Source: Squalus acanthias
Taxonomy: Eukaryota
Assembly: GCA_030390025.1 (NCBI GenBank)
Contig: CM059452.1
Coordinates: forward strand, 6,448,001-6,512,000
Direction of reading: 5' to 3'
Length of the DNA stretch: 64,000 bases
Below, one piece after another: positions 26,588-62,930 of the stretch. The notes beneath the pieces are model-generated. The model did not search any database. It was not told the origin of the DNA and was given only the letters and a program-made list of their open reading frames with translations. A program made the position numbers and the translations under genes. The stretch's first letter is position 1, and each line of letters opens with the position of its first letter.

Positions 26588-26815
26588 ATGCACTACGTCA
26601 AGCTTGTACTGTCCGCAGGAGGGCGCTCTCTGATCACTTTACAAAGATCCTGATCCGCATCTACAGGAAGTGACTGTTTCGAGAGGTGCAAATGAGCGGG
26701 GAGAGGAAAGCCCAGCCAATCTGATGAGATCCCTGCGCTCTTCCAGTTTCTCCAATTCCAGGCCCGGTACAGGCAGTGATCACAGTCTCTTGTTTCTGGA
26801 GATCAGGCTGGAACC

Positions 26816-27287
26816 ATGGAGGTGAAACTCTGCCTAACTCTGGTTATTGTCCTGATCACAGGTCGGTGATATTGGAACCTTCCTATAACATTCTCCAATC
26901 CCCATCTCCATCTCCGGGTGATTATTCTCTTTCTGTTACTCTGTATAACCCGCTGTGTGCCCACTGTTTATTTTCAGAGATGTGTGACGGAGACTCGGTT
27001 TCCCAGTCAGAACAAGGTGTCGCATCAGAAGAGGGTTCAGATTCAGCAATAACCTGCAGTTACTCTGTATCGGGTTCAGCTACAAGCTATAACCTGTTTT
27101 GGTATCGCCAGTGTCCCCACAAAACCCCTCAGTATCTGCTCAGAGCCGATAGTTATGGGAATAACGAGACAGCTCCGGGCTTTGAACACTTCAGCGGGAA
27201 TCTCAACCTGACACAAGGCACTTTTCACTTATCCATGAAAGGCTTGAAGGTCACAGACAGCGCCGTGTATTACTGTGCCCTGAGACC
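26816..27287 (+). CDS. TCR alpha/delta-type V, intact (leader 26816-26861; V exon 26978-27287; 23-RSS 27288-27326)
   Basis: MEVKLCLTLVIVLIT/EMCDGDSVSQ...ITCSYS...LFWYRQ...PQYLL...TDSAVYYCALRP; CACAGTG-23-ACAACAACA. Confidence 0.88.
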
Positions 27288-27878
27288 CACAGTGAATAAG
27301 GGTCCCTCGGCCCTCATACAACAACAGGTCGGCATAGGGGAAGGAGGGTGAGATGGGATGGGTTGTCGTGCTGCACCTCAGGAAAATACCAGGGATTGAC
27401 TCCCCGAGGGGTTATACAGAAAATGAATGGGAAAATACAGCCTGATCCGATCGGGTTTCTCCAGTTATGTCAGTGCTGTCAGTGTTGGGATAAGAGAAAT
27501 TTCTCAACCATTTTAAGCCAGTGTGAAATTCAGACATTTCCACCACACTGTTAGCACAGATCTTCAGATCTCTGGGACGAATAACGGGTTAAATCTCTAC
27601 AAGCAGGTGTCCTGGGTGTGGTGAAGATCCGTCAGGCCCCATTTTTAAAAGCTATCTCACCGGTGCAGAGGGCTTTCCACTTGTCATGTCCCTCGTAGTC
27701 TTGGGGCTTCGACAAGTTAATGGAGCTCATTTGCTGTGGTGGGAAATAAGTGATACCGGGGATTGAATTGATTTATATTATTTTTCGCTTTTCACCTTAC
27801 TGAGAGAGAGAAGAAACGAGAGAGAAGGAATGAGAAAGTCACAGAGTTAAACAAAGTAAGTGACACCGAAACAAAGAC

Positions 27879-27909
<31 letters not shown>

Positions 27910-28299
27910 AAGGAGAGAAACATACACCGAGTTAAATAGAGTGAGCGACAGCGAGACACAAATATAGAGAGAGGCAGAGAGCGACAGAGAGAGAGAGAGA
28001 GAGACAGAGGGAGCGACAGATAGTGAGAGAGACAGAGGGACCGAGAGACTCACTCACAGAGCTAGGGAAGGAAGGGGTTTGTCGGGAGACATCAGTAATT
28101 GGTCCACAACTAAGACTGATTGGTGCACAGCTGGTGTCAGTTCTGAGAGATCAGCCAATCCTGTCCTTGGGAAACGCCCCTCAGTCTCCCAATAAGTGAA
28201 GACTGCCCCTGATCTGAGTTTATTCTTTAATTTCAGACTAGACGGGCCAACATATTTCAAACGATCTTTTGTTTTCTGTCTAATTCTAAAGCAGACACC

Positions 28300-28731
28300 A
28301 TGTGCTCCCCGTGCTCCTTACTGATAATAATGGTCGTGCTTTCCGGTGAGTACATGCCTAAATGATCAATGTGTGTTTCACGGATTTTCCTTACTCCCAG
28401 ACTTTTGACACATTCTGTGTTTTGTTACAGGAACGAATGGCAAAGACTTAGTGTCCCAGGATCCGCCTGAATTAACGGTTCAGGAAGGACAGACCATAAT
28501 ATTGAACTGCAGTTATTCGGAAGCTGGTTCAACTCTGTTCTGGTACATCCAGTATCCCGGGGAAGCTCCGAGATATTTACTGAGGATATATAGCTCGGGG
28601 ACGGTAGACCGGTCTCCTGATTTCCCAGGCCTGTTCTCTGCTGTTTTGCACAGAGACAGCAAAACGGTTCCTTTAAATATCACCGCGGTTCTCGTCTCCT
28701 ACAGCGCCGTGTATTTCTGTGCCATGAGCCC
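28300..28731 (+). CDS. TCR alpha/delta-type V, open frame (leader 28300-28345; exon 28431-28731; RSS 28732-28771 with 24-nt spacer)
   Basis: MCSPCSLLIIMVVLS/GTNGKDLVSQ...LNCSYS...LFWYIQYPGEAPRYLL...YSAVYFCAMSP (D>Y in the DSAVY motif); CACACTG-24-ACAAAAACC. Confidence 0.85.
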
Positions 28732-29029
28732 CACACTGCCGCAGAGATATAGCGGATCCCGTACAAAAACCCACACTGAAAGTTCCAGTTACTGCTCACC
28801 AGAGGGCGCTCTCACACCGATAACCAGCAGCGATAATTCAGCCTCCACAGCGAGAGTCACAGGGACCTTCTTAAAAGAGCGACAAGTGACAACACTCAGC
28901 AAGAACAGGTCAGGTCCACTGGGGGATTTTTTAGGTGATTTCAACTCGTATTTATAATAAAAATGAACGTCACAAATCATGTCTGTGGCGCCTTAACTCC
29001 CCTTTTGTCCTTTCTCTATTGTGTACATT

Positions 29030-31059: not shown

Positions 31060-31534
31060 ATGCGGCTACTCAGCATCTGGGCTGTGTGGGGGGCATTTCT
31101 GACAGGTAATTGTGGACCAAACACATTTCATCTTTTCTCTCATTTCAAACATGGTTTGAATCTGAATTTTAAACACCCGCCGGTCTGATCTTTTCCTGTT
31201 TGAACATGTTTTTCAGATCTGAGTCTTGGAGATTCTGTCACTCAGCCGCTGTCCTCAGGAGTTTAGACAGAAGGAGAAGCGGTGACTTTAAGCTGTACCT
31301 ATGACACTAAATGGAGCACCTTTAATTATTTATATTGGTACCGGAACCACCCAGACACACAGCCCGAGTTTATACTGTGGAAGGATCATGATGGTGTTGA
31401 TGGTGTTGAGCATAAAGCAGATTTTGATAAAACCCGTTTCTCTGCAGAAATCCAGACCTCGACTAAATTCACCAGTTTAACCATCTCGGGGCTGCAGCTG
31501 ACCGACACTGCAGTTTATTACTGCGCCCTGAGAC
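31060..31534 (+). pseudogene. TCR alpha/delta-type V pseudogene (leader 31060-31105; exon 31217-31534; RSS 31535-31573)
   Basis: In-frame TAG at 31264-31266, where paralogs have AAG. Otherwise intact, with CACACTG-23-ACAGAAACT. Confidence 0.88.
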
Positions 31535-32324
31535 CACACTGATGGAAACCAGTTAAACCCTGGTACAGAAACTCCCGCCGCTTTGTAGATCAGAGGCTCC
31601 GCCTGCTGAAGCCGGATATAAGGCTCACTTTGTGCTGTTTGCGGTTCCGGCCATCCTGAGAACTGTTCCCAAAGTCTCTCATTTGTCGGTTGGGTTCAGT
31701 CTGTGCAGTTTCCGCGTTGTTTTCCCTGTTACTCACTGGGAACTGTCTCTCCTGAATCACTGCCACCTTCATCTTCAGACTATTGACTGTTGCTCTTTTG
31801 CCTGTTTTCTGGACAGTTTTCTCTGAGTTTGCGCACCAGCTGGGGAATGGGAGTCTCGCGGGGTTACGCTTCAGCCGAGACTTCTTTGTTCTGAAGGAAT
31901 TTTTGACTCCTCAATGGTTTATTACATCGTCACTGAATGTGGTCCCTCCGTTCAGTTCCTTTCCTGCCGACTGGAGCGCCAGGTCTGAGTGCGATTCTGA
32001 CACTGAACGAGAACTGGTTTATATTTGTTTCACTAAGTTTGAAAGTTGAGGTGCCCGTTACATGAAAAGTGTTTGGAAGCACCGTCCCATCGAATACCTT
32101 ATTATCAAATTAGCAACACGATTATTTTTATGAATAATAAACATGATGTTTCCTGTTCTGTACTGTTAGTTGGATAGCGATTGATTTGTCAGTTTTTACA
32201 CGGACACTGTCCTGAGAGAAGTACTGACAGTCCCCGTTTCTCCCCACACTGCCCGCTCCCCACTTATCCCTGTCACTTCCGGCAGTGTTTCTGTACGGGG
32301 CTCCCTCTGGTTCCTGTCACTGTG

Positions 32325-32855
32325 TCTCTCCGCCCGCAGTGATACACCGCGCTGTCAGAAAGCCGTAGACCGCGGATGGTGAAATTCCCCTCACTTTCTG
32401 AAATGTCGTGAAATGCGGAAATTCGAGCCCCCGTGCCATCTGCTTTGAAAACATCTCCCTAAGAAGGACTGTAGATCAGCAATGTGGGCTCTTTGTCCCG
32501 GTCCTGACCGTACAGTTGTAAGGAATGTGAAGGAGCAGTGGTCGAATAGCTGTAATTACTGGTCACCGAGTCTCCTTCAAACTGTATCGCTGCAAGCGGC
32601 CCCTGTGAGACCGAGTCCGCACAACTAACACCTACAGCAATATAGAAATACACAACTTTAAACTTTTCTTATCATTTTATTATAACTGATAGCATCAAGG
32701 TGACGGAATATACAGGAAATAGAGGGAAAATACAGTTAAAAGGAAGATTCTCTATGGCAGTGATACGTGCAAGAGGGAAGATTGTGTAACTTGTAAACTT
32801 TACCAGTTAAGAGAGCCGCAGCTGTGACGAATGAATAAAAAGTAACTCCTAACAT
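32325..32855 (-). pseudogene. TCR alpha/delta-type V pseudogene (leader 32855-32804; exon 32631-32325; RSS 32324-32286)
   Basis: First Cys>Tyr, Trp>Leu and an in-frame TAG near 32459; SDSAVYHCGRR; CACAGTG-23-ACAGAAACA. Confidence 0.85.
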
Positions 32856-33499
32856 GTTTGCAGAGAGTTGATAACAGACTTGAACAGAACGGGTTAAACC
32901 TGAAATATTTTAGTCAAGACTTGGGAAGGTGTTGATTGATATCCGGCGTCTCTGCCGATTGGTTGATCCCTGACAGAGTCAACAGGTGAGATCCAAGCAG
33001 CTCACAGCTCCTTTTTACTCCAATTCTTCCAATCAACTCACAGCTACTTTGTTCTCCAATTCATCCAATCAGCTCATAGCTCCTTTGTTCGTCACTTCAT
33101 GACGTCTGTGGTCAAAATGCTCTTGCTGACTGAACAAGCGACTGGGAAGAAATAGAGTGAGTGCGTAATTAAGGGATTATACCGCATCAGAAATAATGAG
33201 CGGCTTTAATCAGCTATAATCTTGATCTTTGAGAGCCAATAGCTGGCAATCGTGTTTTTATACATGACCAAAAACCTTAAATCTCCTCAATGACCTCATT
33301 CTAAGGCTTAGGTAATACAATGCGCCAGCAGAGGGCGCCAAACTCAAGAATGATAATTAGAAAGTCATGTGATGAAAACGCCAAGGCCAACAGCAATCGA
33401 AGCCTGAATGAGGTCACAATGGGGCCGCCCCCTGCAGTGTGTGGGTGGAACAATGAGCTGAACAGCCCGGGTTACCGCTCTCCTTCTCAATCTCTGCCT

Positions 33500-33883: not shown

Positions 33884-33899
33884 TCATTCAATTCCAAGT

Positions 33900-34437
33900 C
33901 ACTGTGAGAGATTCAGTCAGTTTCTAATAATACTGGCGGCTGTGTTGAACAGTAAGTATTGGATTATATTTAAAACACAGGTTAGCTGGTTGATGCAAAG
34001 AGCGTGTGCAGGGATTTAGTGCAATTACCGATCAGAAATATCCACATGATGGACAGCTGTGTAGATGGAGGGTTATCCACTCTCATACAGATAGACACAA
34101 GTTTCGATTTAATCTTCTGCTCTTCTGTTCCCCTATCTTCACAGGCGGGCTGTGTGCAGATCCAGTAACTCAGTCTCCGGTGACAATTGCCGTGTCAACA
34201 GGGGGTTCGGTGCAGTTAGATTGTGAATATAAAAGCCCGGATATTGACTACATGCAATGGTATCGGCAGAAACCGGCACAGCCACCAAGCTGGATAATTA
34301 GCAAAGTAGTAGCACTGAAGGGAGACGAAATCTCAGGACAATATCTGGCAGCTGCTAACACGTCTAGAAAGTACGGTTACCTCAATATAAGCAGCATGAG
34401 TGTGGAGGAGGGGGCGGTCTATTACTGTGCAGTGAGG
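33900..34437 (+). CDS. TCR V, open frame (leader-like exon ending at 33951 without its own ATG; V exon 34145-34437; 23-RSS 34438-34476)
   Basis: RFSQFLIILAAVLN|GTAAGT; GLCADPVTQSP...LDCEYK...MQWYRQKP...AVYYCAVR; CACAGCG-23-ACAAAAACC. Confidence 0.8.
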
Positions 34438-35366
34438 CACAGCGTCAGATAAAAGCAAAGGCCCCGTACAAAAACCTCAGCGAGAATTTACAGCTCCATT
34501 AAGTGTTCTTTTGTGCTGCTTTCTGTGGGGTTAATTTGATGCCAAACCCACGGAGACTAAAGACAGCCAGGTTTCTATTTCAACGAGTTGTATTTGTGTC
34601 TGTGTCTTTGCCCAAATCAGCGGAGAACCGGTCTGGGAAATCTGGAGACTTCACTCCCTGCCCCGAGCTGTATCTCCTCATTAAATAACTCGGATCTTCC
34701 CCGGGGATACTGGTTGTACCAGAAGAGGTAGGGAAATCTATCGGCTGTGGAGTAACTAGAGTTCAGTATTAAGATCTGTCCTTCCTGAACCGTTAATTCA
34801 GGTGGATCCTGGGAAAATGAGGCTTCGCCATTGTAACAAAATACTGAATCTGTCAGAAGTCTGGGAGTAAATATAACCCATGAAATACATACGATATTTT
34901 AAACATAGACTCACCGGGCAGCACGACCATTATTATCAGTAAGACACATGGTGTCTGGTTTAGATGGGAGTCTTCGGCTCTGATATCAGAACAACATTAA
35001 CTATTGGTCACTGGCCCCATCTCACAGACTGACGCTGCTAAAGGGCGAACATTGGCTTTAATCCTCGTCCAGTTCTGAGGAGAACAATTTCACTCCGTTC
35101 TCTGATCCCCGCTCTGACGTCATGAATTGGCAAACAAAGTAGCTGTGAGCTGATTGGTTGAATTGGAAAACAAAGGATCTGCAAACTGATTGGATGAATT
35201 GGAGAACAAAGGACCGAGAGCTGATTGAATGTGATCTGCTGACTCTGTCGGGAACGGACCAATCGGCAGAGACCGGATATTACTCAACATCTTCCCAATT
35301 CTTGACGACAAGACAATTTCAGCCTCAAACCGTTCTGTTCAAATCCACCACCAACTCTCTGCAAAC

Positions 35367-36277: not shown

Positions 36278-38704
36278 GTGAAAGGCTTTCATAGAGGTAA
36301 CCAGGCTGCTGACTGACAAACAGATGGACAGCGGCCTGTCTGGGCCTCGGTCGCTTGTTCTCCCTGAGCAGGGGACCAGTTTGTATTCGGGTTCCCACAG
36401 TGCGGAGACACAGAGAAAGGAATCACTGGACACCGGGAAATGCAGGAGGAAAAACATACTGACTGTCTGGAGCCTGTGCACAAAGGTCACGAGCATCTGG
36501 CGCCAGTAGAACTGAAAGGAAATGAAAGTCAGTTGTTGTGAATGTGGGTTGTGAGTTGTTGTTTATTTTTCAGATCAGAAAGGTTAAATCTGCGAGCGCA
36601 AGCTGTCAATTTCCGAGCTCGAATTCATCTGATTAATGTTTCTGTCGCTGTAAGTGTTGATGTCAAAGGCTCTATATTCGCCGTCAGCATCACCGCAACA
36701 CATCTCGCTATAAATGAGCACTGGAAACTGCCCATAGATGCACTGACTGTCTGTTTTCACCCAGGATCTCAAAAGTGTAAAAGTTCCCATTATATCCGCC
36801 AGAGGGCGCCGTGCTCATATGTTTCTCGCTGCTTCCTTCGCACTTAGTCCCATGTTATTCATGATATGTCGAAAACCATCAACATTTCAAACCTGTTTAT
36901 ATGTGTGTTGTGTTCCTGGTGTTCAGTAAAATACCTCCCCTCTCGCTTGTTCTGTCTTGCTTTCACCGTCACAATTTCTCTCCACCGCTCTTATGAATGA
37001 TTTCATTACACTGCAAATCTTAAAGCAACTGCAAAGTGACATTTTTGGTAGTTTTGTAAAGCTGCAGTTTGAAAAAAATCTCTTATATGCTAAAATACGT
37101 AATGGGCGACACACTCAGAGAGACAGGATTGTAACCCGAGTGAGGAGTTTCTCCCGTGTCACTAACCAGTGCTGGACAGCCTGGAGAGATGTATGTTGGA
37201 CATCTTGGGGAGTTACGAGTTAACAGTCGAACTTCTTTGTATCTTGGATTAACAAGCTTCCAGGCTTTCCCTGATATGAACAGAATGACTTTGAAGTGTC
37301 GTAAAAAGAATGCAGTGCTTTGTTTCTGAGATGTAAAGTGCTTGTGTAAGGGAATAAGTGATAGTAATGACGTCACCCATGAGTGGTTTAGTTTTAGGGT
37401 ACTAAACATGGTTAAAAAGGCAACATTAGCTACAGAAAGCAGTTGGTACAGTATTTACTTCAAAGATGCTGGCAAATGATCTGTCAGGAAGTCTTGTTTA
37501 AGGGACGTAGTTATGAATTAAACAAACAACAAACTGTTGAGATGAATATTCCGTTTTCAAAGGGTCTGGGAATAGAAAGGTCATACAGGCTTATCTATGA
37601 CATTTTCCTTTGATGTAGTCCAAATATGGTGTATAAAGGATTGTGGTTTTCAACAGTATCTCAGCGTGTACTGGAAAGATACTGAAACCGAAACAGTCAC
37701 TCTCTGTATACAGTTAAAGACCGATCACCTTCACTGTGCAGCAATAAGGTCTGTTCCGTGTATTCCACTACGGAGTCTCGTTCATTCCACTACGGAGTCT
37801 CGTGCTTACTCGAAACGTGTTGCTGTGAACCAGAGGAGAAAGGATGTTGACTGCGAACAACCACCATTTCCTCCCCGTGTGATTAATTTCAGCGCCTCCT
37901 GTTAGTTTCAGGCGGACTTTAATCTAACGGGTTCAGCAGATATTTAGGAAAGGGGCTCCTATTCCCCCCGAGCTATTGCCAACACAGTCGGATGATGGCG
38001 GTAAGATATGATCTCGAAATGACAATATATCGGTTTGAATGTAGAAGAAGATGTTCAGTTTATTTCACTCATTGTCAGTAATCAGACTGAGGTGGTTGAC
38101 GGGGGTCGGGTTTGATTAACCTTCTGATGGGGCCACACAAGGGGAAGATTTCCTCTGGTCTCTCTGTGGAATTCTCCTCTGAAATTGTTTTAACGAAATC
38201 GCAATCTCATTCTTTTAGAATGCGTTCATTATTTCGTTAGAAATAGCGACCAGAGGAAACCTCAAACACAGTGTGGACACCTCGGTGTAAACACGAATGT
38301 TCCGGAGAATGAAGTTAATGCTCTCGATGAGTCGTCACACACCAGCATAAAATAAACACTCAGTGTGACCGATTCGGCCCCGGTGAATATAATCCCACAA
38401 TTAAGCAATGCTGAAGTTTTCCTCAGACCAAGGAATGCCCTCACTGAGTGACGGCTCCACAGGCCGATACTTTATGCTGTGACTGTCAGTATCTCTGATC
38501 AAACCCGCTATCAACTGGAAATTATAGAGACAAACCTTGCGGTAACACTGCCTGCGGCAGCCCCGCCCACAGCTTCCGTTCGCTGCTCTCGCTCTGACCC
38601 GCCTTGCCTGCCCTGTGTTTTTGGAGTGTTTGCTGCTGCTGTTACGGGACTGTAAACAGGAGGGAGGTTTTTGTACAGTGACTGCCGCGTTTCCTCTCAG
38701 TGTG

Positions 38705-39135
38705 CGGGTCTATCGCACAGTAATACACCGCGGTATCCGCGCTCTCCGTGCTCTCAATGACCAATTGGCCGCGTTTGTCCGCAGTGGAAAGATCCAAATC
38801 AAATCGGTCCCTTCTCTCTTTGCCAGCCGATATTCGCTTTATTACCCACTCCAGTCCCTGACTGGGTCTTTGTTTGTACCAGTGCATGCCGTCAATGCTG
38901 GACATGTCATAGCTGCAGTTTATCTGCACCGAATCCCCGCTCCGGACTGTTATCGCAGCGGGAGACTGCAGCACTTGGTCCGAGAGACATCGACCTGTAA
39001 AAACATTCAGATAATAAAACACTGGAGCAACGTGAATAAAACAAACACTGCGGGTTATTGAGCACAGCTCCTGTACCTACATGGTAGCAGCACCAGAATA
39101 ACGAGTGATACATTCACTTGTACCGAGTAATACAT
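38705..39135 (-). CDS. TCR V, intact (leader 39135-39081; exon 38994-38705; 23-RSS 38704-38666)
   Basis: MYYSVQVNVSLVILVLLP/CRCLSDQVLQSP...INCSYD...MHWYKQRPSQGLEWVI...DTAVYYCAIDP; CACACTG-23-ACAAAAACC. Confidence 0.85.
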
Positions 39136-40230: not shown

Positions 40231-41663
40231 TTATTCCAGGGTCAATTCATTCTCTATAATTCCGTTAGTTCTACCGTCAGGACACTGTTAACTGTGACTC
40301 CAGTGAGCTTTCCCCTCACGGGTCAGTTCACTGGTGAAATAACATTGTTGTCGGAATGATTTATAGATCCCTGATATTAGAATGATGACGTCTGCTGTTA
40401 TTGAACAAACAACTGAACAGATTAAAGAATAAACTCTCCCTAAATTTAAACAGAGTTTCAAGAACTGTCCTCTTCTGTGGTTTGTATTAAAATGCTGTTT
40501 AAATTATATCCGGTAAGTTCTGACCTTCTTTCTGCCTGTAATGATTTATTTAAAGATGCATAATCGTCAGATGCTTGATTACCAATGAGAGAGAATGGAG
40601 GGAACAGCCGAGCGGTGCTTTTCAGGAATTTACCGCTCATCTGTATAAAGTTCCCGGGAGCAGAGCGCGGGGAGCGGGTTCGAAGCCCCCAGGGTGAGGT
40701 GCATGCTCTCGTTACCAAGAGTTCAACATCAGCAGGGCATGAAAAACTGTCCTTACAACGATCTCGCATATTAACAAATGATGAGGAGCAGAAAAAGAAA
40801 CACAATACAGGCAGTTTCGATTTGTTTTTCGCCCCTTTAACATCGATTTCCAGCATCAGTACAGTTAATGTCTTCAGAAATCAGATCTCAGGGTGTGTCT
40901 TTCATTCACATTTTAATATTGCTTTCCCCATCTTCCACATCCTTCCACTCTCTTGTCCTGCCCACTGGTTAGTATCAAAATTCAATCCTTCGATATGATG
41001 GATGTCTTTTTGTGATGATTATTGCCCGATGTACCGTCCCAGCCCATTGTGGATTTCAAACATTAATCTTCAGTTCATTCCAAAATGTACAACATTGTTG
41101 GCGAAACAGCATTTAACTCACTGCCCGGGGTCTGAGCCAAACAAAGGATATTGTGAGCTGACGCCCTCTGGTGGATATTCTGAGAAATGTTCAGATGTCG
41201 GTGGACAGGGTGTGAGGAATCCTGTGTGTATTCACTGAACTGTCTGCAATTCCTGGTTATGGGAAGCTGGGTTGGAGCGGTTCTGAATTAATATGCCGAG
41301 CAGCAGCAAACGTTTTACATCGTTCAACTACAGATTAGAAGAAGAAAGTTCATACGATTATAGGTAAAGAGTGGAGACAGGGGATGAGAAAGGACAGACA
41401 GGCACGGAAAGGAACTACAGATGGATTTGTGAATTTCAGTTTTAGCATTTTGAAATCACCAACTAATGTAATTCCGCCAGTGGACTTCACCTTTTCATGT
41501 GGAGTGTTGTGTTTTGTCGACATTTAGAAGGTCCCTGTGACTCTCACTGTGGAGGCTGAATTATCGCTTGTTTATCGGCGTTAGAGCGCCCTCTGGTGAG
41601 CACTAACTGCAACTCTCAGTGTGGGTTTTTGTACGGGTTCCGCTGCATCTCCGCAGCAGTGTG

Positions 41664-42139
41664 GGGCTCATGGCACAGAAATACACGGCGGTGTCGGAGA
41701 TCAGGGCATTGCTGATCGTTAGCTCGGTAATCTTGCTGCTTTTATTAAACGTAGAAGAGAATCGGTCTTTGAATTCAGGGTTCCTGTTTACTATCGCTCC
41801 ATAGAGATAAAACACGTACTGTGGAGGCTGCCCGGGGTGCTGACTGTACCAGTACACATGAGGGTTAGGAGCGGTTGTTTTCAAGGCGCAGTTTAGTGTG
41901 ACGTTACTTTCCTCTTCAACCGTTATTTCAGGAACCGGCTGTTCCACTGTGTCTTGCTGGCTCCATTCTAATATAAAATAATAGTAATAGTCATCTCCAT
42001 CACAATCATCATCAGGATCATTTAACCAATTATCATAGCTGGGTTACAGCCGTCAGGGGGAGAATGGATTTTAACTGGGGAGGAAATACTTACTGAGAAG
42101 TGATATAATGATGAGGAGCGGTGCGAGGCGGTTGTACAT
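41664..42139 (-). CDS. TCR alpha/delta-type V, intact (leader 42139-42094; exon 41967-41664; RSS 41663-41624 with 24-nt spacer)
   Basis: MYNRLAPLLIIISLL/KWSQQDTVEQ...LNCALK...VYWYSQHPGQPPQYVF...DTAVYFCAMSP; CACACTG-24-ACAAAAACC. Confidence 0.88.
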
Positions 42140-44125
42140 GACGCTCCCTGAGTCTGTAACTCTGCAGTCCTGGAAATCCTCTGTCGGAGCAGAAATACAG
42201 ATCCCCGCCGCACTGCACTGCTGATCGAACCAATGCCAAAGAAGTAACAGAGGCAGTAAGCTCTCCGATAACAGAAGGCGGGTCAGAGCGAGAGCAGCAG
42301 ACGGAAGCTGTGGGCGGGGCAGCCACGGGCAGTGTTACTGTAAGTTTTGTCTCCATCATTTTCAGTTGGTAACGGCGAGAAATATGTGACCACGGCGCCC
42401 TCTGGCGGTCACTCTGAGAACTTTACACTGTCAGGATAATAGTTTGAGCAAAGTGTGAGTTTATCTTTGGCGAACTTCCCAGCGTCCGTGTTTTGGGAGA
42501 GGCGGTTCAGACAATTTAACAATTTTTGAATCTCTTTCTTTATGGCTTTCTCGTACCTTTAAGATTTAAGTTTCTCACTCGCTATTTCTCACTTTCTTTA
42601 ATTTCTCTTTCCCTCCTTTCCTAAATTGCTGTCCACTACTATTACATTGATTTGTCTCTTTCTCTCATTCTTTCTTTAGTGCCTTCGCTTTGTGTTCCGC
42701 TGTCTGTGTTTCAAAATTTCTTCATTTCAGAATTTCTTTTACTCTCTCTCTTCTATATTTCCTCTTATTTTTCTGTGCTCAGTCCCCCTGCCCTCCGATC
42801 ATTATAACCGGGCCTCTCCCAATCCCGTTACTCCAAACACCCTGTCTTCTGGTGGCGAGTACTGCGAGGTGCAATTATTGACGCCAATTCCCGATAATTT
42901 GCAGTACACAAGATAGTTATAAGTGAGAACGGCTAATCGCTCCTTCAAGGGATGACTGCGTCACTCAGAGAGATCCCAGCTCTCGACTTCCATTGTAGCA
43001 TCCAACGATTCCAGTGCATTTCTCCTCCCCACTCTAACTGAAAGTTTATTCCACCCATTGATCACTCTCTGTGTGTGAAGCGGGATTTCCTGATACCAGT
43101 CCTGGAATTTTAACCCGTGTTCTTTCCCAGAAGGATGGAGTGGGAATTTTTTATGCTAATATTTACAACATAACAATAGTAATAATAACATTGATAAATC
43201 ATGATGAAAACTGATAATAAGCCATATAAACACTGATATTAATTTCAAAATAAAGCCTCTATTTCCGAATCTGCTTCTTTAATCCCTTCAATAAAGTTAC
43301 TGAACAATGTTCTCAGGCTGTAACTCGCCTCGATACTGAAACCAGCACAGTGAAAACATCCTCGCACTGCCCTCTGGTGGCGACTGCCTGTAACTACAAG
43401 GTACAAGTCCTGTCCTGTCCCAGTTCACAAGATCATTCTGAATGAGGGAAGCCATTCGGCCCGTATTGTCCCATCCATCCAGAGAGATACTATCTCCCGG
43501 CCCCACTGTGGCCTCAAACTTTTCCTTAAAAGTTTCCAGGATATGTTCCTCCACCACTGTATTCGGAAACTTATTCCATACATTCACCACTTTCCATGTG
43601 TGAAGAAGATATTGTCCTATATTTACATTTTATACTTTGAACCCGTGCTTCCCTCTTCTACTTCAAACAGTTCAATTTAATGTAATATTGTGGGATATGT
43701 TTTTAATACATCAACTGTGCGATACTTCTCTAGATGTCATTGCAGTCAGGCACTGGGATACGGTGCTGATCAAAACTCTCGCACATCCGCGAGCAGCAGG
43801 TCACAAGCGCTGGGTTTGTCTCCTTGGAATTGATTATTTCAAAGAAAGAAGGCAGGGATCATTGTGAGAGAAAGTGAGGACAGCGCGACAATTCCTCACA
43901 GGTGGATCCTACGTGTGACATCACTTCCCGCGGCAGCCCCGCCCACAGCTTCCGTTTGCTGCTCTCGCTCTGACCCGCCTTGCCTGCCCGGTGTTATTGG
44001 AGAGATTGCTGCCGCTGTTCCCTGTTTGGCATTGGTTGGATCAGCAGTGCAGTGGGGCGGGGATCTGTATTTCTGCTCCGACAGAGGATTTCCCGGACTG
44101 CAGAGTTACAGACTCAGGGAGCATC

Positions 44126-44676: not shown

Positions 44677-45479
44677 CACAGTGATGGAAACCAGTTAAAC
44701 CCTCGTACAGAAACTCCCTCCGCTTTGTAGATCAGAGGCTCCGCCTGCTGAAGCCGGATATAACGACGGGCAGATGTGAAGAGCGATACAAAATAATTAT
44801 TTAGCAAATCTGCCATTTCCTTATTTTCTATGACAGTATCACCCGAGTGTGTCTTTAAGCGGCCCGCATTACCCTGAGCCTCCCGCTTTCTCTTCTTACT
44901 TTGAAAACGTTTCCATATAATCGCCATCAGAGGGAAGTTCATTGTTGGGTTGAGTGTCGGGGCGAGTTACAGACTAAGAACATTGTTCATTTTATTTAAC
45001 TAAAGAATTAGAGAAACACATTTTTAAATGCAGGCATTAAGTTCAAAAGGAAGTCTGTGTTCCAAATGGTTAACTATTAAGTTATTGTGAATGTGGTTAT
45101 TGTTAACGTGAATACGTTGTAAATATTTGTAATGAGCAGCTCGCCCCAGAATCAGTAAAACTATCTGTTGTCTGCACCCTCCCATTCTGCTCAAACCTGT
45201 CAGTCACTCCCCATTTCATTCATATAAAAGGTCGCGTTTGTCTAATTTACCGCATCGTTGTTTTCATATCCTCAGGATCTACTGGCCGTCTCTACCTCCC
45301 TTTATATCGGCTGTGGGTAGTTCTAATGGTCAGTGAGCAGCTCTTTTAATGGGAGCCTCCGGCACTGCTGCCAGAACAATATTAACAAATTCCTTTCACT
45401 GGCCCCACCTCACAGACTGAAACTGTTAAAGGGCCAACATTGGGTTTAATCCCCGTCCAGTTCTCTGTTGTGAGGAGAA

Positions 45480-46163: not shown

Positions 46164-46595
46164 ATGTATTTCTGTTTAACTGCCCTGATTTACTTCTCAG
46201 GTAAGTGTTGGGGGTGACGGGCTGATTCTGGGGGATAGACACAGTGAAGTGACATTGTTTAATTTAATATCGCTCTGGGCTCTTGCAGGACATTGTCGAG
46301 GAGACTCCGTTTCACAGACACCGGCTGCAACCACAGTCAGTGAAGGAGACGATGTTCAGTTGCACTGTAATTATACAGCTACAAGCACCAGCAATCTTAA
46401 CCTATTCTGGTACCGTCAGCATCCCAGCGGATCCATGGAGTTTCTGCTGCAGAGAAACAAATACAGCGAGAACGAAGGGAGATTTTCAGGGGACCGTTTT
46501 TCAGCGAAGCTCAATGATTCGAGCCGAACCGTCCCGCTGAATGTGTCTGAAACACAACTGACAGACTCCGCGGTGTATTACTGCGCACTGAGCCC
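46164..46595 (+). CDS. TCR alpha/delta-type V, intact (proximal leader 46164-46200; exon 46289-46595; 23-RSS 46596-46634)
   Basis: MYFCLTALIYFS/GHCRGDSVSQ...LHCNYT...LFWYRQHPSGSMEFLL...TDSAVYYCALSP; CACAGAG-23-ACAAAAACT. Confidence 0.88.
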
Positions 46596-47156
46596 CACAG
46601 AGACACGGAGCTGGGCTGGACCTGTACAAAAACTGTCAGAGCGTCGCTCAACATATCAGCGCGTCAGGGGAACATTGTGATCAGGGGCGAGTCTCAGCTG
46701 GTCCCTGTATTTGTGATTAGACATTGTGCTGTTAATTCTAATATATAGGTATCTTTATTCCTGCAATTTGTCTCTTTTTAAGTATTTATCCAATTCCCCT
46801 TTGAATGTTACTATTGAATCTGCTTCCACCGCCCTTTCAAGGCAGTGAATTCCAGATCACAACAACTCACTGAGTAAAAAATCAAATCTCCTCATCTCCT
46901 CTCTGGTTGTTTTGCCAAGTATCTTCAATGTGTTTGTCCTCTGGGTACCGACCCTCCTGCCAGTGGAAACAGTTTCTCATTATTTACTTCATCAAAACTC
47001 TTCATATATTTCTGTTTGGATACAGTCACTCTGAGAACTCCTATTCCGAAATGCTATCCCGCTTTTGTTGTGTGAGCGACAATCTCACCGCCTGTTGGGA
47101 TTTATTACTCACAGTTATTGGAACTTTATCTAAACGTTTCCCTCTCTGTCCTTTAG

Positions 47157-53480: not shown

Positions 53481-54019
53481 TGTGTGTCCCGGAATTTCAA
53501 TTACCGTCAGCCTCTTTCGCTCTGTGTTTGAGTGACGTGGCGTGCGGCCACATTTGAGTGACGTACAGTCGGACTTGTTTGGGTGCCGCACAGACGGCCT
53601 TGTTTGAGTGAGCTATAGTCGGCCATGTTTGAGTGATGTGATGTCGGTGATATCGGCGATAGTTGGGTGACGTTTGAATGTCAGCAAACTCCTTCTCCGA
53701 GCTGTTCTGAATATCGATCCATGACTTGAAGGGAAAACAGCTGATCAGAAACAGAAAAGACGGTTCATTCTGTGATCGATCTTTCGGGCCGATTGGATTC
53801 TGCAGTTTGTTTTCTCGGCCGCTCCTGGAAGCAGTTGGGTGACAGTTTGATCCGAGGTTAATTTGGTTTCCTCTCGGTGTGTGTTTGAGCGCCTGACAGC
53901 GCGCTGCACATTGTGGCTGCATCTGCCCGCGATTCCACACAACCCCAACAGACAGGAGCTCCGCCCTACAGTCCAATGGCAGTTTTTGTACTGGGCTGAG
54001 ACTGATTTCCATCACTGTG

Positions 54020-54483
54020 AGTCTCAGGGCGCAGTAATACACGGCAGCGTCAGTCAGCTGCAGCCCGGAGATGGTTAAACTGGTGAATTTAGTCGAGGTC
54101 TGGAGCTCAGCAGAGAAACGGGTTTTAGCAAAATCTGCTTTATCTTCAGCACCGCTCGAGCGTTTCCTCAGTATAAACTCGGGCTGTGTGTCTGGGTGTT
54201 GCCGGTACCAGTATAAATAATAGCTGCTCAGTGTAGTATCATAGGTACAGCTTAAAGTCACCGCTTCTCCTTCTGTCTTAACTCCTGAGGACAGCGGCTG
54301 AGTGACAGAATCTCCAAGACTCAGATCTGAAAAACATGTTCAAACAGGAAAAGATCAGACCGGCGGGTGTTTAAAATTCAGATTCAAACCATGTTAGAAA
54401 TGAGAGAAAAGATGAAATGTGTTTGGTCCACAATTACCTGTCAGAAATGCCCCCCACACAGCCCAGATGCTGAGTAGCCGCAT
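54020..54483 (-). CDS. TCR alpha/delta-type V, intact (leader 54483-54438; exon 54326-54020; 23-RSS 54019-53981)
   Basis: MRLLSIWAVWGAFLT/DLSLGDSVTQ...LSCTYD...LYWYRQHPDTQPEFIL...DAAVYYCALRL; CACAGTG-23-ACAAAAACT. Confidence 0.9.
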
Positions 54484-55900
54484 TGTCGCTGTCCGCTCTG
54501 TAAAAGGGGGGTTGGATATTTGAAGACACCCGTTCTAATCCCCGCCCTCAATAATCTGCTGTCGTGTCTCAGGATGCTCTCACCTCACTTCCTTGTGTCC
54601 CCAGTGGTGCTGTGAGACCGGTAGGTGGTGAGCTGGCTGCCAGTGAATGGAAACACCCCGAGCTGGGCTACAGTCAGTGTCCTTATAGGGGAATGGTTCC
54701 GCTTTTCGAGACCGGGGTGGGAATGAAACACTTGTATGCTAATTGTAATTTGAAAGCAGTGGGTTATAAATGGGTTTGGTTCATTCCGGCGTCAATGCGA
54801 TCTCCAGAATTCGGTTCGCCTTACCATCAGGACACTGGTAACCGTGACTCCAGTGCGCTTTCCCTCACGGGTCAATGAACTCGATATTTCAGCTGAATGA
54901 TTTGTAGATCCATGATATTAGAGCGATGATATTTGCTGTTACTGAACAAACAATTGAACAGACTTAAAGAATAAACTCCTGCTGTAATTTAAACAGGGTT
55001 TCGAAAACCGCCCTTTCTGTGGTTTGCATTTAAAATTGGTTTAATTTCTATCTGTTGAGTTCTCCGCTTCTTTGTGCCAGTTCTTTAAATCTTTCATTCT
55101 TTAAAGATTCATTATCTTCAGATGTTGGATTTGCAATGAGAGAGAATGAAGGGAGCGGCGCATCTGCGCTTTTCAACAATTTCCCGCTCATCTGCTTAAA
55201 GTGCCCAGGAGCAGAGCGCGAGGAGTGGGTTCAAAGGGTGAGGTGTCGGGCGGGACCTCGTTAACAAGAGCTCAACACCAGCAGGGCGTGAAAAACTCCT
55301 TACAACTTTCACTCATAATAGAAAAGGATGAGGCTCAGAGAAATAAACACAATGCAGGCAGTTTCGGTTTGTGTTTCGCCCCTTTAACATCGATCTCCAG
55401 CATCGGTACAGTTAATGGCTTCAGAAATCAGATCTCAGGCTGTGTCTTTCATTCACATTTTAATATTTCTTGCCCCATCTTCCACACCCTTCCACTCACT
55501 GGTCCTGCCCACTGGTTAGTATCAGAAGTCAATGCTTCGCAATGAGCGATGTCTTTTTCTGACGATTATTGCCCGAAGTGCCGACCCAGCCAATTGTGGC
55601 AAATTAATTTCAAATATTAATCATCTTTTGATTCAGAAATTGACACAACTGTTAGAAAAACAGCATTTAACTCGCTGCCCGGGGTCTGCGTCGAAAATGG
55701 AATATTGTGACCTGACGCCCTCTTGTGGATATTCTGAGAACGGTTCAGATGTCGGTGGACAGGGTGAGAAATCCTGTGTTTTTTCTCTGCCCTGTCTGCA
55801 GTTCCTGTTTATGGGAAGCTGGGTTGGAGCGGTTCTGAATTAATATGCGGAGCAGCAGCAAAGGCCTTTCATCGTTAAACTAAAGACTGGACGAAGGAGG

Positions 55901-57310: not shown

Positions 57311-57467
57311 TATGAGCTGTAATCAACAACCAATATAATTCCGCAAATGGATCTCACCTGTTGTTGTTAAGTGTGGTGGTTTTTGCCATTTTAAGGAGGA
57401 CCCTGTGACTCTCACTGTGGAGGCTGAATTATCGCTTCCGTTTATCGTTGTGAGAGCGCCCTCTGGT

Positions 57468-58667: not shown

Positions 58668-58733
58668 GAGCACTAACTGGAAGTCTCAGTGTAGGTTTTT
58701 GACCGGGATCCGCTATATCTGTGCAGCAGAGTG

Positions 58734-59997
58734 GGGCTCATGGCACAGAAATACACGGCGGTGTCGGAGATCAGGGTGTTGCTGATCGTTTGCTCGGTAA
58801 TCTTGATAGTTGTATTAAACGTAGAAGAGAATCGGTCACTGAAGTCGGGGTTCCGGTTTACTCTCAATACAATAACATAAAACACGTACTGTGGAGGCTG
58901 CCTGGGGTGCTGACTGCACCAGTACATATAAGGGTTAGGGCAGCTTGTTTTCAAGGTACAGGTTAGAGTGACATTACTTTCCTTTTCAACTGTCATTTCA
59001 GGAACCGGCTGTATTACTGTGTCTTGGTGGCTCCATTCTAAAATAAAATAATAGTAATAGTCATCATCTTATCACCATCATCTCAATAAACATAGGCCCA
59101 GAAATTCGTCCGAATACGGGAGAGTACGCACTGTGTACTCAGCCATATTCGGTCCCGAAGTGCCGGTTTCCTGCATGCACTGCGCATGCGCGGGAAACCG
59201 GCACTTCCGATATTGCGAACGGGGCGGTTCCTAAGTGAACCGCGTGCGCACTACAGGTTGCGCGCACGCAGCACACTTAGTTTTTTTTTCAGGTTTGAAC
59301 GCGCAGGTAAGTGTTGAAGATTTTACACATGAAGAAAGCAGGCGTAAGACCCCCTTTTAACAAGGTAAGTAGTTAATTAAGTATTATTTTAATTTTTTTT
59401 CAACAGGTTTATCTTTTTTAGAGACTTTAAAGAAAGGTAAGTATATATTTATAACTTTTAAAAAGAAATTAAATTTTTTCAAAAATTTTAATTTTTGTTT
59501 AAAGTGGTTAATTTATTTAACTATAGTTATTTTATTAATGTAATGGCTTTTTTAATTTAATTGAGGTTTAGCTGTTCTTTTGGGGGCCTGTTGTATTCAT
59601 AGTTTTGACAGCTCTTCCTGTCAAAACTATGAATGAAAGATGGTGTGCTGCCATTAACTCTAACTGGCCCACGTGATCCCAGAGGTCGCATCGAACTAAC
59701 TGCGCCTCAGGGACACGCACACACTGCGTGCCGGCACCAGGTACAGGCCCAGGACCAGAAGTTCGTGTGGGCCAAAACCATAAAGGCAGGCGCGGAGTGC
59801 GATATCGCGGGGGATCCTTACCCCCGCGGCAACCATCGAAGTCCAATTTCTGGGCCACTATCTTCATCATCATCATCATTTCATCAATAATAACATCTGG
59901 GTTACAGCAGTCAGAGGGAGAATGGATTTTTACTGTGGAGGAAATACTTACTGAGAAGTGATATAATGATGAGAAGCGGTGCGAGACGGTTCCACAT
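58734..59997 (-). CDS. TCR V paralog of the 41.6-kb V, open frame with lesions (leader 59997-59952; exon 59037-58734; RSS 58733-58694)
   Basis: MWNRLAPLLIIISLL/...LTCTLKTSCPNPYMYWCSQ...DTAVYFCAMSP; WY>WC; heptamer CACTCTG-24-TCAAAAACC. Confidence 0.78.
59095..59856. mobile_element. Non-autonomous DNA transposon/MITE-like insertion in the V intron
   Basis: 12-bp terminal inverted repeats GGCCCAGAAATT...AATTTCTGGGCC; absent from the paralogous intron at 41968-42093. Confidence 0.75.
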
Positions 59998-60417
59998 GAT
60001 GCTCCCTGATTCTGTAACTCTGTGGTCCGGGAAATCCTCTGTCGGAGCAGAAATACAGATCCCCTTCCCACTGCACTGCTGATCCAACCAGTGCCAAACA
60101 GGCAACAGCGGCAGCAATCTCTCCAATAACAAAGTGCAGACAAGGCGGGTCAGAGTGAGAGCAGCAAACGGAAACTGTGGGCGAGGCTGCCGCGGGCAGT
60201 GTTATCACACGGTAGGTCCACCTGTGAGGAACTGAACTCAATAATAATGTCTTCTCCGGAAATTATATAACTCTGCCTCTCTATGAGGGCTGTGTCCCTT
60301 TCACATTCGTTACAAATTCGGAGCAAACAGACTCGCGATAGGAATTGCAGATTATTATATTGTTCAATAGTTAACGAAGTCTTCAACAGTGAAGTGGGTG
60401 TACCGGGCACAATTTCA

Positions 60418-62712
60418 TAATTTGCAAATGACACAAAACTTGGAAGTATTGTAAACAGTGAGGAGGATTATGATAGACTTCAGTAAGGCATAGACAGACT
60501 GGTGAAATGGGCGGACACGTGGCAGATGAAATTTAATGCAGAAATTGCGAAGTGATATATTTTCGTAGGAAGTACGAGGAGAGGCAATATAAATAAAAGT
60601 ATACAATCCTAACGTGGGTGCATGAATAGAGAGACCTGGGGGTATTTATGCACAAATCATTGAAGGTGGCAGGGCAGGTTGAGAAAGCGGTTAAAAAAGC
60701 ATACGGGATCCTGGGCTTTATAAATAGAGGCATAGAGTCCAAAAGCAAGGAAGTTATGATGAACCTTTATATAAGACTGTTTCGGCCTCAACTGGAGCAT
60801 TGTGTCCGATTCTGGGCACCGCACATTAGAAATGATGGGAAAGGCCTTAGAGATGGTGCAGAAAAGATTTACGAGAATGATTCCAGGGATGAGGGACTTC
60901 AGTTACGTGGATAGACTGGAGAAGCTGGGGTTGTTCTCCTTAGAGCACAGAAGAGTGAGAGGAGATTTTATAGAGGCGTTCAAAATCATGAGGGGTCTCG
61001 AGAGAGTAGATAGAGAGAAACTGTTCCCATTGGTGGAAGGGTCGAGAACCAGAGGTCACAGATTTATGGTGTTTGGCAAAAGAACCAAAGGCGACATGAG
61101 GAAAAACTTTTTTACGTAGCGAGTAGTTAGGATCTGGAATGTACTGCCTGAAAGGGTGGTGGAGGCAGACTGAATCGTGGTTTTCAAAAGGGAATTGGAT
61201 AAGGAGCTGAAGGAAAGAATTGCAGGGCTACGGGGAAAGGGCAGGGAGTAGGACTAGCTGAATTGCTCTTGCAGAGAACCGGCACGGGCTCTACGGGCGG
61301 AATGACCTCCTTCTGTGCTGTAACCATTCCATGAATCTATGAACCGGAGGCTGAAACTAGCCTTGGGAATTAGAACAAAATGGCAACTGGTCCAAAGGTT
61401 CTGGAAAGGCACATCTCGTTTCCACTTAACTAAATTCCGAAATTATGAAACTGTAAATGAATGTCATAGAAACATAGAAACATAGAAATTAGGAGCAGGA
61501 GTAGGCCATTCGGCCCCTCGAGCCTACTAGGCCATTTAATGAGATCATGGCTGATCATCCAAATTCAGTACCCTGTCCCTGCTTTCTCCCCGTATCCCTT
61601 GATCCCTTTAGCCTTAAGATATATATGTAACTCCTTCTTGAATATATTTAATGCATTGGCCTCAACTGCCTTCTGTGGTAGAGAATCCCACAGGTTCACC
61701 ACTCTCTGGGTGAAGAAATTCCTCCCCATCTCAGTCCTAAATGGCTTACCCCTTATCCTTACACTGTGACCCCTGGTTCTGGACTCCCCCGCCATCGGGA
61801 ACATCCTTCCTGCATCTAGCCTGTCTAGTCCTGTTAGAATTTTATAAGTTTCAATGAGATCCCCTCTCATTCTTCTAAACTCGAGCGAATACAAGGCCAA
61901 TCGTCCCAATCTCTCTTCATACGTCATTCCTGCCATCCCAGGTGTCAGTCTGGTGAATCTTCGCTGCACTCCCTCCATGGCAAGAACATCCTTCCTCAGA
62001 TAAGGCGACCAAAACTGCACACAATACTCAAGGTGTGGTCTCACCAAGGCCCTGTTCAACTGCAGCAAGACATCCTTGCTCCTGTACGCGAATCCTCTCG
62101 CTATGAAGGCCAACATACCATTTGCCTTCTTAACCGCCTGCTGCACCTGCATGCTTACCTTCAACGACTGGTGCACAGGGGCTCCCAGGTCTCGTTGTAC
62201 TTCCCCTTTTCCCAATCTATTGCCGTTCAGATAATAATCTGCCTTCCTGTTTTTGCCACCAAAGTGGATAACCTCGCATTATACTGCATCTGCCACGCAT
62301 CTGCCCAATCACCCAACTTGTCCAAATCATACTGGAGTTTCTCTGCATCCTCCTCACAACACACGTGCCCACCCAGCTTTATTTCGTCTGCAAACTTGGA
62401 GATATTACATCTAGTTCCCTCGTCTAGATCATTGATATATATTGTGAATAACTGGGCTCCTAGCACCGATCCCTGCGGTACCCCACTAGTCACTGCCTGC
62501 CACTCGGAAAAAGACCCGTTTATTCCAACTCTTTGCTTCCTGCCTGCCAACCAGTTCTCTATCCAAGTCAGTACTTTACACCCAATCCCATGTGCTTTAA
62601 CTTTGCACGCCAATCTCTTATGCGGGACCTTATCGAAAGCCTTCTGAAAGTCCAAATACTCCACATCCACTGGTTCTCCCTTATCTATTCTACCAGTTAC
62701 ATCCTCAAAAAT
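60418..62712. mobile_element. Two CR1 fragments tail-to-tail (+ 60418-61342; - 61465-62712)
   Basis: VKKAYGILGFINRGIE (+); LDFQKAFDKVPH, SGVPQGSVLG and KFADE (-). Confidence 0.9.
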
Positions 62713-62930
62713 GTCAAACATTAATGAGCATAAATGTGAGATAAAAAGCAATTTCACGTTACTTTATGTTGAGAAAGTGTCAGTCAATATTGGTTGATGT
62801 AAGGTGACCGGCGGTGGGAATCCGCGCTCTGTCAGCGCCACCTAGTGGCTGGGTTTAAAGTATCTCCTTTGAGCTGATCTCACAGAACACGGTTTGTGTT
62901 CGAGGTGTCCAGAGGCCCCTTCTCACTGTG

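Follow-up and report, generated by a model that had tools for sequence, protein, structure and literature searches.

Gene content of the window

The window, a stretch of 64,000 nucleotides of Squalus acanthias DNA, is part of a 4.3-Mb TCR-alpha/delta V array of this shark, in which about 30 IgM clusters are interspersed. It carries one IgM cluster and TCR V exons in both orientations (Table 1). The V at 53981..54318 showed 67% identity to the V part of a sawshark protein in which a J and a TCR delta-type constant region follow. Homologue searches for full-length or read-through chains of the V families F04 and F09 returned little or nothing. For the V analyses, 311 first-round V matches were reduced to 226 by requiring a V 3' end and a credible RSS.

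Table 1. Features of the window. Modules A and B are the RSS-adjacent motifs 24 and 42 bp past the nonamer, respectively.
Feature	Position	Strand	Remarks
IgM cluster	1065..19170	+	VH (23-RSS), D1 (12/22), D2 (12/12), JH (23), C-mu1 to C-mu4, TM exon
17.1-bit match in C-mu1 coding sequence	10919..10937	-	S-A-I-Y-C
Weak CTCF motif, 14.0 bits, family S07	26610..26628	+	~190 bp upstream of leader ATG of V at 27.0 kb; degenerate promoter-type copy
TCR alpha/delta-type V exon with RSS, family F11	26980..27326	+	
TCR V exon, 24-bp-spacer RSS, family F04	28433..28771	+	bears module A
RSS-adjacent CTCF motif, module A, 17.9 bits	28793..28811	+	core 24 bp past nonamer; partial upstream (ZF9-11 type) motif
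TCR V exon with RSS, family F00	31267..31573	+	
TCR V 3' fragment with RSS	32286..32458	-	
CTCF motif, 22.3 bits, exact core, family S01	33322..33340	+	upstream of V at 34.2 kb, repeat inserted between
TCR V exon with RSS, family F06	34156..34476	+	
Intergenic CTCF motif, 19.6 bits, family S05	36793..36811	+	
TCR V exon with RSS, family F10	38666..38995	-	
CTCF motif, 19.0 bits, family S06	41159..41177	-	449 bp past nonamer of V at 41.7 kb
RSS-adjacent CTCF motif, module A, 17.9 bits	41584..41602	-	24 bp past nonamer of family F02 V
TCR V exon, 24-bp-spacer RSS, family F02	41624..41962	-	bears module A
Promoter-type CTCF motif, 22.3 bits, family S02	42393..42411	-	~250 bp upstream of leader ATG of V at 41.7 kb
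CTCF motif, 23.5 bits, exact core, family S04	43365..43383	-	good upstream-motif match
TCR V exon with RSS, family F00	44372..44715	+	
TCR V exon with RSS, family F07	46297..46634	+	
Further moderate CTCF motif, 15.4 bits	48031..48049	+	absent from the initial annotation
TCR V exon with RSS, family F00	53981..54318	-	
CTCF motif, 16.7 bits, family S06	55713..55731	-	second copy of the family
Module A motif of V at 58.7 kb, 18.6 bits	57454..57472	-	moved 1.2 kb from RSS by intra-motif insertion
TCR V exon, 24-bp-spacer RSS, family F02	58694..59032	-	insertion disrupts adjoining motif
RSS-adjacent CTCF motif, module B, 23.9 bits, exact core	62833..62851	-	42 bp past nonamer; adjoins frameshifted F09 V
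Frameshifted TCR V, 24-bp-spacer RSS, family F09	62891..63157	-	bears module B

CTCF motifs in the window

Motifs were scored with a JASPAR-type CTCF matrix and mismatches were counted against the core CCASYAGRKGGCRS. At no more than one mismatch, 11 matches were found in the window versus 0.56 +/- 0.78 in shuffled window sequence, 11 being reached in 0 of 100 shuffles. Nine of these matches (28796, 33325, 36796, 41161, 41586, 42395, 43367, 57456 and 62835; three exact and six with one mismatch) had been listed in the initial annotation, with correct coordinates and strands, and the other two lie in the IgM cluster (7479 and 10921). The initial annotation had claimed at least 11 core matches, of which site 55715 has two mismatches and site 26613 more than two. 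Matrix scores of the 11 listed sites ranged from 16.7 to 23.9 bits for ten of them, 26613 being weak at 14.0 bits. Within 19-64 kb, nine sites of at least 17 bits were observed versus 0.12 expected from 60 local Markov resamples. Since the 11 listed sites represent eight flank-defined families, the excess outlasts the collapsing of duplicates. It had also been stated that no comparably strong site occurs in the IgM cluster; this is true for non-coding DNA only, because the 17.1-bit match falls within C-mu1 coding sequence, where it is probably incidental.

The three sites described as lying past V nonamers in the orientation of the V were all confirmed; those at 28.8 and 41.6 kb are 24 bp beyond the nonamer and the one at 62.8 kb is 42 bp beyond it. 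The RSS-adjacent origin of the motif at 57456 had been overlooked; a repeat-derived insertion of about 1.2 kb splits it from the V at 58.7 kb. The F04 V beside 28793..28811 carries a module A captured from family F02.

Enrichment and constraint across the V array

Sites of at least 17 bits occurred at 125-195 per Mb in three blocks of contig C29 and at 109 per Mb in the V array of contig C911, versus 0 in 13 control stretches (130 kb). The exact core was found at 20-50 per Mb in the V array versus 1.72 per Mb genome-wide (6395 in 3.71 Gb; reversed-pattern control 151). The 170 sites of some 1 Mb of V array fell into 31 flank families, with none in the controls. A genome-wide repeat as the source of the motifs was rejected for module A, of whose 115 exact copies at least 100 are inside the TCR V locus.

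Constraint was estimated in nine families whose copies were located by their flanks, by comparing parsimony changes with an expectation matched by family and base class; families S09 and S10 were excluded for their low copy number. The core columns showed 52 changes versus 102 expected (p<1e-4), or 43 versus 76 without module A, and changes within the motif were milder than random (-1.95 versus -3.31 bits). Family S01 was little constrained (0.93 versus 1.02 changes per column). The upstream ZF9-11-type motif, with a consensus taken from PMC12885311, was enriched at the expected gap in a test devised post hoc (p 0.0001-0.02 over three consensus forms). A horn shark gene model reads through the RSS and flank in the same register (C-S-A-E-G-A-L versus C-S-P-E-G-A-L), and contigs of four other organisms over the motif bin showed 0 core differences among the 40 listed of 214. 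The window motifs are real CTCF motifs and putative binding sites.

RSS-adjacent motifs

Co-oriented sites at +23-25 or +41-43 were found at 37 of 193 TCR Vs (1.8 expected; 0 reversed), and since this class derives from two origins (module A at +24 bp and module B at +42 bp) plus one capture, these are 37 copies and not 37 independent cases. When F02 Vs were chosen by coding sequence, all 30 had the motif at +23-25, with at least 16 bits in 29. The remaining 156 of the 193 Vs, including the largest family F00 (51), are without an RSS-adjacent site. The motif was present in 5 of 6 broken and 20 of 21 intact F02 Vs. The transfer from F02 to F04 was conversion-like, V end, RSS and motif having moved together. 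Module A is spread out over 6.47-10.28 Mb of C29, while the 15 most D-proximal TCR Vs have 0 RSS-adjacent sites.

Among intact Vs, RSS-adjacent sites and spacers other than 23 bp went together (26 of 30 versus 6 of 111). This link was set aside as evidence, because no more than one or two origins underlie it and because shifting the heptamer gives an alternative reading of the module A RSS, with a spacer of 22 bp. A further 200 kb outside these counts contains four more RSS-adjacent sites and, at 15 bits or more, 5+/8- sites.

Orientation of sites and Vs

A single switch of orientation, with convergence around 37-41 kb, had been reported and does describe the window, but is an effect of the window's limits. 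The strong sites of the three blocks (n=105) were balanced (58+/47-, p=0.33) with 41 strand switches, and orientation flips repeatedly in the next 200 kb and in two other blocks. Site strand was the same as that of the nearest V in 122 cases and opposite in 21, with 27 sites lacking a V within 2.5 kb. The Vs of C29 are 69+/65- and the sites of the C911 V array 27+/11-. A lattice converging on one point is unsupported, since site orientation goes with the individual V cassette and changes 41 times over the 105 sites, and the single point at 37-41 kb was rejected. Families S01, S02, S07 and S13 are upstream of V promoters and co-oriented with the V.

IgM clusters and the TCR D-J-C end

RSS-adjacent sites were found on 0 of 31 IgH VHs in the blocks, 0 of 30 IgM-cluster VHs had a site within 1.5 kb, and the motif scan revealed no IGCR1-like site near the IgM D-J (1.8-2.7 kb). 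Outward-facing sites flank two of the five IgM clusters examined; the pattern being absent from three, divergent sites as insulators of each IgM cluster were considered inconsistent.

The sole TCR D-J-C region found is on C911, with one C-delta accompanied by J-delta, J-alpha and C-alpha; a Pfam PF09291 search for C-alpha gave nothing useful. The IgM D-J proposed earlier as the target of the reverse sites is unsupported, because a productive join of a reverse V to that IgM cluster would require inversion and because the only TCR C-delta is on this other contig. Between 340 and 864 kb C911 has one site of at least 17 bits, C911:664074, which is single-copy, V-facing and 17 kb before the first J-alpha (23.2 bits, exact core). 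On weak evidence it is a candidate TEA-like site, and it may be due to chance, since one exact-core site per ~520 kb is the background rate (about 0.9 expected from the genome versus 1 seen; with interval and strand taken into account, the odds are roughly 1 in 10). No strong INT1/2-like or E-alpha-like site was found, C911 having no site of at least 15 bits at 340-660 kb and none of at least 14 bits at 775-864 kb. Neither D-delta nor J-alpha was found to be preceded by a multi-site element of the Cer/Sis type, and no inverted, Trdv5-like V was found between C-delta and J-alpha. Since C911 is not joined to C29, no window site can be called convergent with the C911 site.

Proposed mechanism and alternatives

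The V-coupled CTCF architecture, with putative binding, is likely to be genuine and directed at TCR J and D segments, not at IgM D-J. We favour, with a probability of about 0.6, that the conserved V-cassette motifs are putative loop-extrusion stops or anchors which would bring Vs near the TCR D-delta/J-alpha recombination centre. The motifs built into duplicated TCR-alpha/delta V cassettes, usually facing as their V faces, would be occupied by CTCF in thymocytes. Bound sites would halt and anchor cohesin loop extrusion across the multi-megabase array of mixed orientation, and the V array may loop to the V-facing site that precedes J-alpha. For the last step, capture of the RSS, diffusion over short distances would serve as it does in mouse Igk and Tcrb, inversion being required for half the Vs. 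An RSS-adjacent site might raise the use of its V, perhaps compensating for the 24-bp spacer.

The initial annotation had proposed CBE-assisted RAG scanning in cartilaginous-fish TCR loci. Enrichment after collapsing, constraint and the fixed-distance RSS-adjacent classes make a role of CTCF in shark TCR V choice plausible, but the form envisaged, VH81X-type linear scanning with reverse sites leading Vs to the IgM D-J at 1.8-2.7 kb, is highly improbable. The co-oriented RSS-adjacent sites do resemble, at about two and four helical turns, the VH sites of mouse (17-19 bp) and human (19 or 48 bp) (PMC6746451), and TCR V 23-RSSs are 12/23-compatible with IgM D 12-RSSs. Such scanning, however, uses only convergent RSSs (PMC11153149) and is unsupported, since C29 Vs face both ways and neither the 15 D-proximal Vs nor the shark VHs have sites. 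Also opposed to it are the balanced, repeatedly flipping site orientation (Igh bias >98%), the lack of an IGCR1-like site, and the geometry: a reverse V downstream of an IgM cluster is convergent only with the D2 3' RSS, giving a tail-to-tail join. Weak searches revealed no TCR-V/IgM-C protein among the matches inspected.

It is unlikely that the sites, though bound, act only locally, controlling promoters or insulating neighbouring V promoters, or V blocks from IgM clusters or repeats, without steering recombination. Several site families located 200-800 bp upstream of V leaders, the insulator activity linked to upstream-motif-bearing sites (PMC12885311) and the two flanked IgM clusters would agree with this, but the other three clusters do not, and insulation needs neither two unrelated modules at set distances from the nonamer (+24 and +42 bp) nor their constant co-orientation. 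Less credible still is that the motifs are neutral passengers, a few motifs of single origin in ancestral cassettes which duplication and gene conversion then amplified and made uniform. Most sites are indeed copies, module A foremost, conversion-like transfer across families is evident and the motif is retained beside broken Vs. This account is opposed by the 31 distinct families versus none in controls, by fewer changes specifically in the core columns with a bias to tolerated ones, by the upstream-motif enrichment and by the shared register in horn shark.

To our knowledge, the choice of V segments megabases away has been worked out in mouse and human only. Sharks have long-range TCR V arrays beside short-range IgM clusters. 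The presence of CTCF motifs on the former kind only suggests that selection of Vs through CTCF dates back to the beginnings of adaptive immunity in jawed vertebrates, and that it goes with distance and not with whether a locus is Ig or TCR. More speculatively, RSS-adjacent CBEs may have arisen repeatedly on long-range V classes (shark TCR Vs, mammal VHs) and be absent from short-range cluster genes, the shark 'V end + 24-bp-spacer RSS + CBE' module being portable, so that another V family could capture it to tune use independently of orientation. Family F04, with members that have or lack the captured RSS and CBE module, offers a natural paired comparison for an effect on V usage. [quoted passage not shown]

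Comparison with known systems

The V region of mouse Tcra/Tcrd, the same type of locus, has 144 bound CTCF sites in 1.8 Mb (PMC5859386; PMC7515734), a density similar to the 109-195 motifs per Mb in shark, and many sites of both are upstream of V promoters. In mouse 129 of the 144 sites point one way and binding was shown, whereas the shark C29 array is balanced and its sites are known from motif sequence; RSS-adjacent sites, a class that shark has, are not reported for mouse. Compared with mouse TEA (PMC5859386), the shark candidate is 17 kb from J-alpha, in a region without strong INT1/2- or E-alpha-like motifs.

The RSS-associated CBEs of mouse and human VHs such as VH81X are likewise co-oriented, follow the nonamer at a short, constant distance, are shared within V families by inheritance and fall into two distance classes (PMC6746451; bioRxiv 10.1101/2020.01.01.891473). 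The shark sites differ in being on TCR Vs and on 0/31 and 0/30 VHs, in being spread through the array in both genomic orientations and not D-proximal, and in their distances, 24/42 bp to the CCA of the core (~22/40 in that paper's convention) versus 17-19/48 bp (PMC6746451). Since flank sequences of the modules are also conserved, the shark modules are homologous copies.

Mouse Igk (Cer/Sis, bidirectional Vs) and Tcrb also have multi-megabase V arrays in which both Vs and CBEs face either way; inversional joining depends on diffusion there, and a V-downstream CBE (Tcrb Trbv1) can raise V use by anchoring loops (PMC11153149; PMC12820099; PMC10772921). With half the shark Vs inverted, loop-plus-diffusion of this kind fits better than VH81X-type scanning. 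Unlike Igk, shark has no Cer/Sis-like element in the regions searched. In Igk, CBE strand is independent of V strand and sites are mostly intergenic (PMC5859386), whereas shark site strand tracks the V. A CTCF orientation code has been described for the TADs of skate (PMC10115646).

CTCF motifs in the window and in the V arrays

Analysis of the eleven CTCF-core matches listed in the initial annotation of the window confirmed nine with zero or one mismatch, while the site at 55715 carried two and that at 26613 more. The window held 11 matches with at most one mismatch vs 0.56 in shuffled sequences. Scored with a JASPAR-type CTCF matrix, ten of the listed sites reached 16.7-23.9 bits and 26613 reached 14.0. 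The statement that the IgM cluster has no comparably strong site does not hold literally, as one strong match is present there, and survives in that this match sits in C-mu1 coding sequence. A minisatellite of 52-53 bp units between the C-mu4 and TM exons (15871-17251) carries a CTCF-core-like word with 2 mismatches in each unit (maximum 11.3 bits).

Scanning of four blocks (1.53 Mb) indicated that strong sites (at least 17 bits) occur at 109-195 per Mb in the V arrays vs 0 in the controls (130 kb), and exact cores at 20-50 per Mb in the scanned arrays and 1.72 per Mb genome-wide. Clustering based on flanks only placed 170 sites in 31 families and the eleven window sites in eight, and the enrichment persisted after duplicates were collapsed in this way. 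Families S02, S05, S06 and S18 may be distantly related to one another. An upstream ZF9-11-type motif, in consensus forms taken from PMC12885311, was enriched 5-6 bases ahead of the 19-mer (p 0.0001-0.02, post hoc).

For nine families, copies were gathered by flanks only, trees were constructed excluding the motif and changes were counted. Core columns showed 52 changes where 102 were expected (p<1e-4), and 43 where 76 were expected when the largest family was removed, counts that keep some bias because motif calling supplied the seeds and the motif was part of the alignments. Changes within the motif altered its score by -1.95 bits, vs -3.31 for random changes; in family S01 the core constraint is barely visible. 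Neutral copying of the motifs is, in our judgement, improbable as their explanation.

RSS-adjacent sites

The distances reported from V nonamers to sites in the window (24 bp at 28.8 and 41.6 kb; 42 bp at 62.8 kb) were correct, and a fourth RSS-adjacent site, that of the V at 58.7 kb, was recognised at 57456, moved off by an insertion within the motif. Among the 226 Vs retained, 193 were TCR Vs. In 37 of these, vs 1.8 expected, a site oriented like the V lay no more than 100 bp from the nonamer; reversed sites were absent at that distance. The motif at +23-25 (module A) was present in 25/27 Vs of family F02 and 6/13 of family F04, and that at +41-43 (module B) in 6/6 of family F09; all 30 F02 Vs chosen on coding sequence kept module A. 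The F04 carriers have a V body 81% like other F04 members, while their V end, RSS and flank are 84% like F02, and therefore module A was captured once. In horn shark, a gene model whose reading frame continues across the RSS preserves the register with Ala in place of Pro, which, as far as a protein hiding synonymous bases can tell, fits a change at a degenerate C/G position of the motif. No RSS-adjacent site was found on the 31 IgH VHs of the scanned blocks, most of them from the tandem VH array before D-delta, and no CTCF site within 1.5 kb of the 30 IgM cluster VHs.

The RSS spacer was 24 bp in all 27 F02 Vs examined (22 bp if the heptamer is read as shifted), with the same register in horn shark. 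In an orphan chimeric remnant at 22400-22620 of the window (minus strand), only the 3' half of module A is present, fused to an F09-like V 5' part; the RSS and part of the motif are gone.

Arrangement of the loci

Published work already places shark IgH clusters in linkage with TCR-alpha/delta, TCR Vs lying among the clusters (PMC12227049). The window corresponds to G000:C29:6448001-6512000. Kin of the window Vs were found throughout 5.98-10.32 Mb of the window's contig, C29, interspersed with about 30 IgM C-mu4 exons. The window V at 54 kb shares 67% identity with a sawshark protein in which the V is followed by a J and a TCR constant region; we read this constant region from the sequence as delta type, whereas the database label is TCR alpha-like. 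The single C-delta is located on the unplaced contig C911, where the VH array, whose segments share about 60% identity with the IgM VH of the window, adjoins the TCR D/J-delta on their upstream side and contains no C-mu and no CTCF motif of at least 15 bits.

Features of the window and of contig C911
Feature	Position	Strand	Remarks
IgM cluster VH-D1-D2-JH-C-mu1-4-TM	window 1-19 kb
Twelve TCR-type V exons/fragments	window 27-63 kb	either
24-bp-spacer RSSs	window 28732-28771, 41624-41663, 58694-58733
C911 Vs	C911 0-350 kb		strong sites 27+/11-
VH array, ~30 tandem IgH-type VHs	G000:C911:362510-519381 (L059-L074)	all forward	23-RSS, 4-kb period
J-delta, 13 or more segments	C911 558-576 kb
C-delta	C911 583 kb
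J-alpha, ~100 segments	G000:C911:681457-777126		many in recently duplicated runs
C-alpha	C911 782 kb

At 5.97-10.27 Mb of C29, the roughly 30 IgM clusters lie in either orientation within the TCR V array and belong to a unit of about 70-150 kb that recurs there. Several VH loci (L219, L222-L230, L233 and L234) have no RSS directly 3' of VH and seem germline-joined to D or D-J. Two IgM cluster VHs have reverse CTCF motifs on their upstream side, at a distance of 5-8 kb and pointing away from the cluster (G000:C29:6441273; window-block 146807 and 148263). On C911, two more-divergent V exons begin the VH array (362.5 and 373.7 kb), and a tandem duplication situated 25-38 kb 3' of C-alpha (G000:C911:808500-820500) contains repeated weak reverse CTCF-like matches (12-13.7 bits).

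Orientation and mechanism

The single orientation switch noted in the window does not extend beyond it: the 105 strong sites of three C29 blocks (58+/47-) switch strand 41 times, and at 37-41 kb two cassette groups of opposed orientation meet, a junction found again in copies of that unit. Module A strands genome-wide are 54+/61-, and 122 sites share the strand of their V, 21 oppose it and 27 have no near V.

Linear RAG scanning is described as restricted to convergent RSSs, while at Igk, with Vs in either orientation, loop extrusion to a CTCF platform is followed by diffusion (PMC11153149, PMC12820099). Since the C29 Vs are 69+/65-, loop extrusion to CTCF sites followed by diffusion fits best, and we give this reading a probability of about 0.6. 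The V-linked CTCF sites would anchor cohesin loops, and Vs of either strand would then be captured by diffusion, as at Igk. At Trbv1, a V-downstream CBE is reported to boost use via loop anchoring regardless of RSS orientation (PMC10772921). We infer CTCF occupancy, contacts and an effect on V usage at the shark sites. Local insulation by the sites is unlikely, though less so than neutral copying. RAG scanning towards IgM is the least credible reading; the proposal that the reverse sites are aimed at the IgM D-J region is not supported, as RSS geometry does not allow the window's reverse Vs a productive deletional join with the upstream IgM D-J.

Comparison with known systems

Between 340 and 864 kb of C911 one strong site was found, at 664074, which is single-copy and V-facing. 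The mouse TEA site has the same position before J-alpha and the same strand (PMC5859386); the likeness is only a hint because one site per such span is also background. A CTCF orientation code is described in skates (PMC10115646), and none of the papers retrieved in a literature search dealt with CTCF at shark receptor loci. The shark sites differ from the VH81X class in V type, orientation and position. They may work like the V-promoter CTCF sites described for mouse Tcra/d (PMC7515734) combined with the reported VH-type RSS-adjacent CBEs (PMC6746451; bioRxiv 10.1101/2020.01.01.891473).
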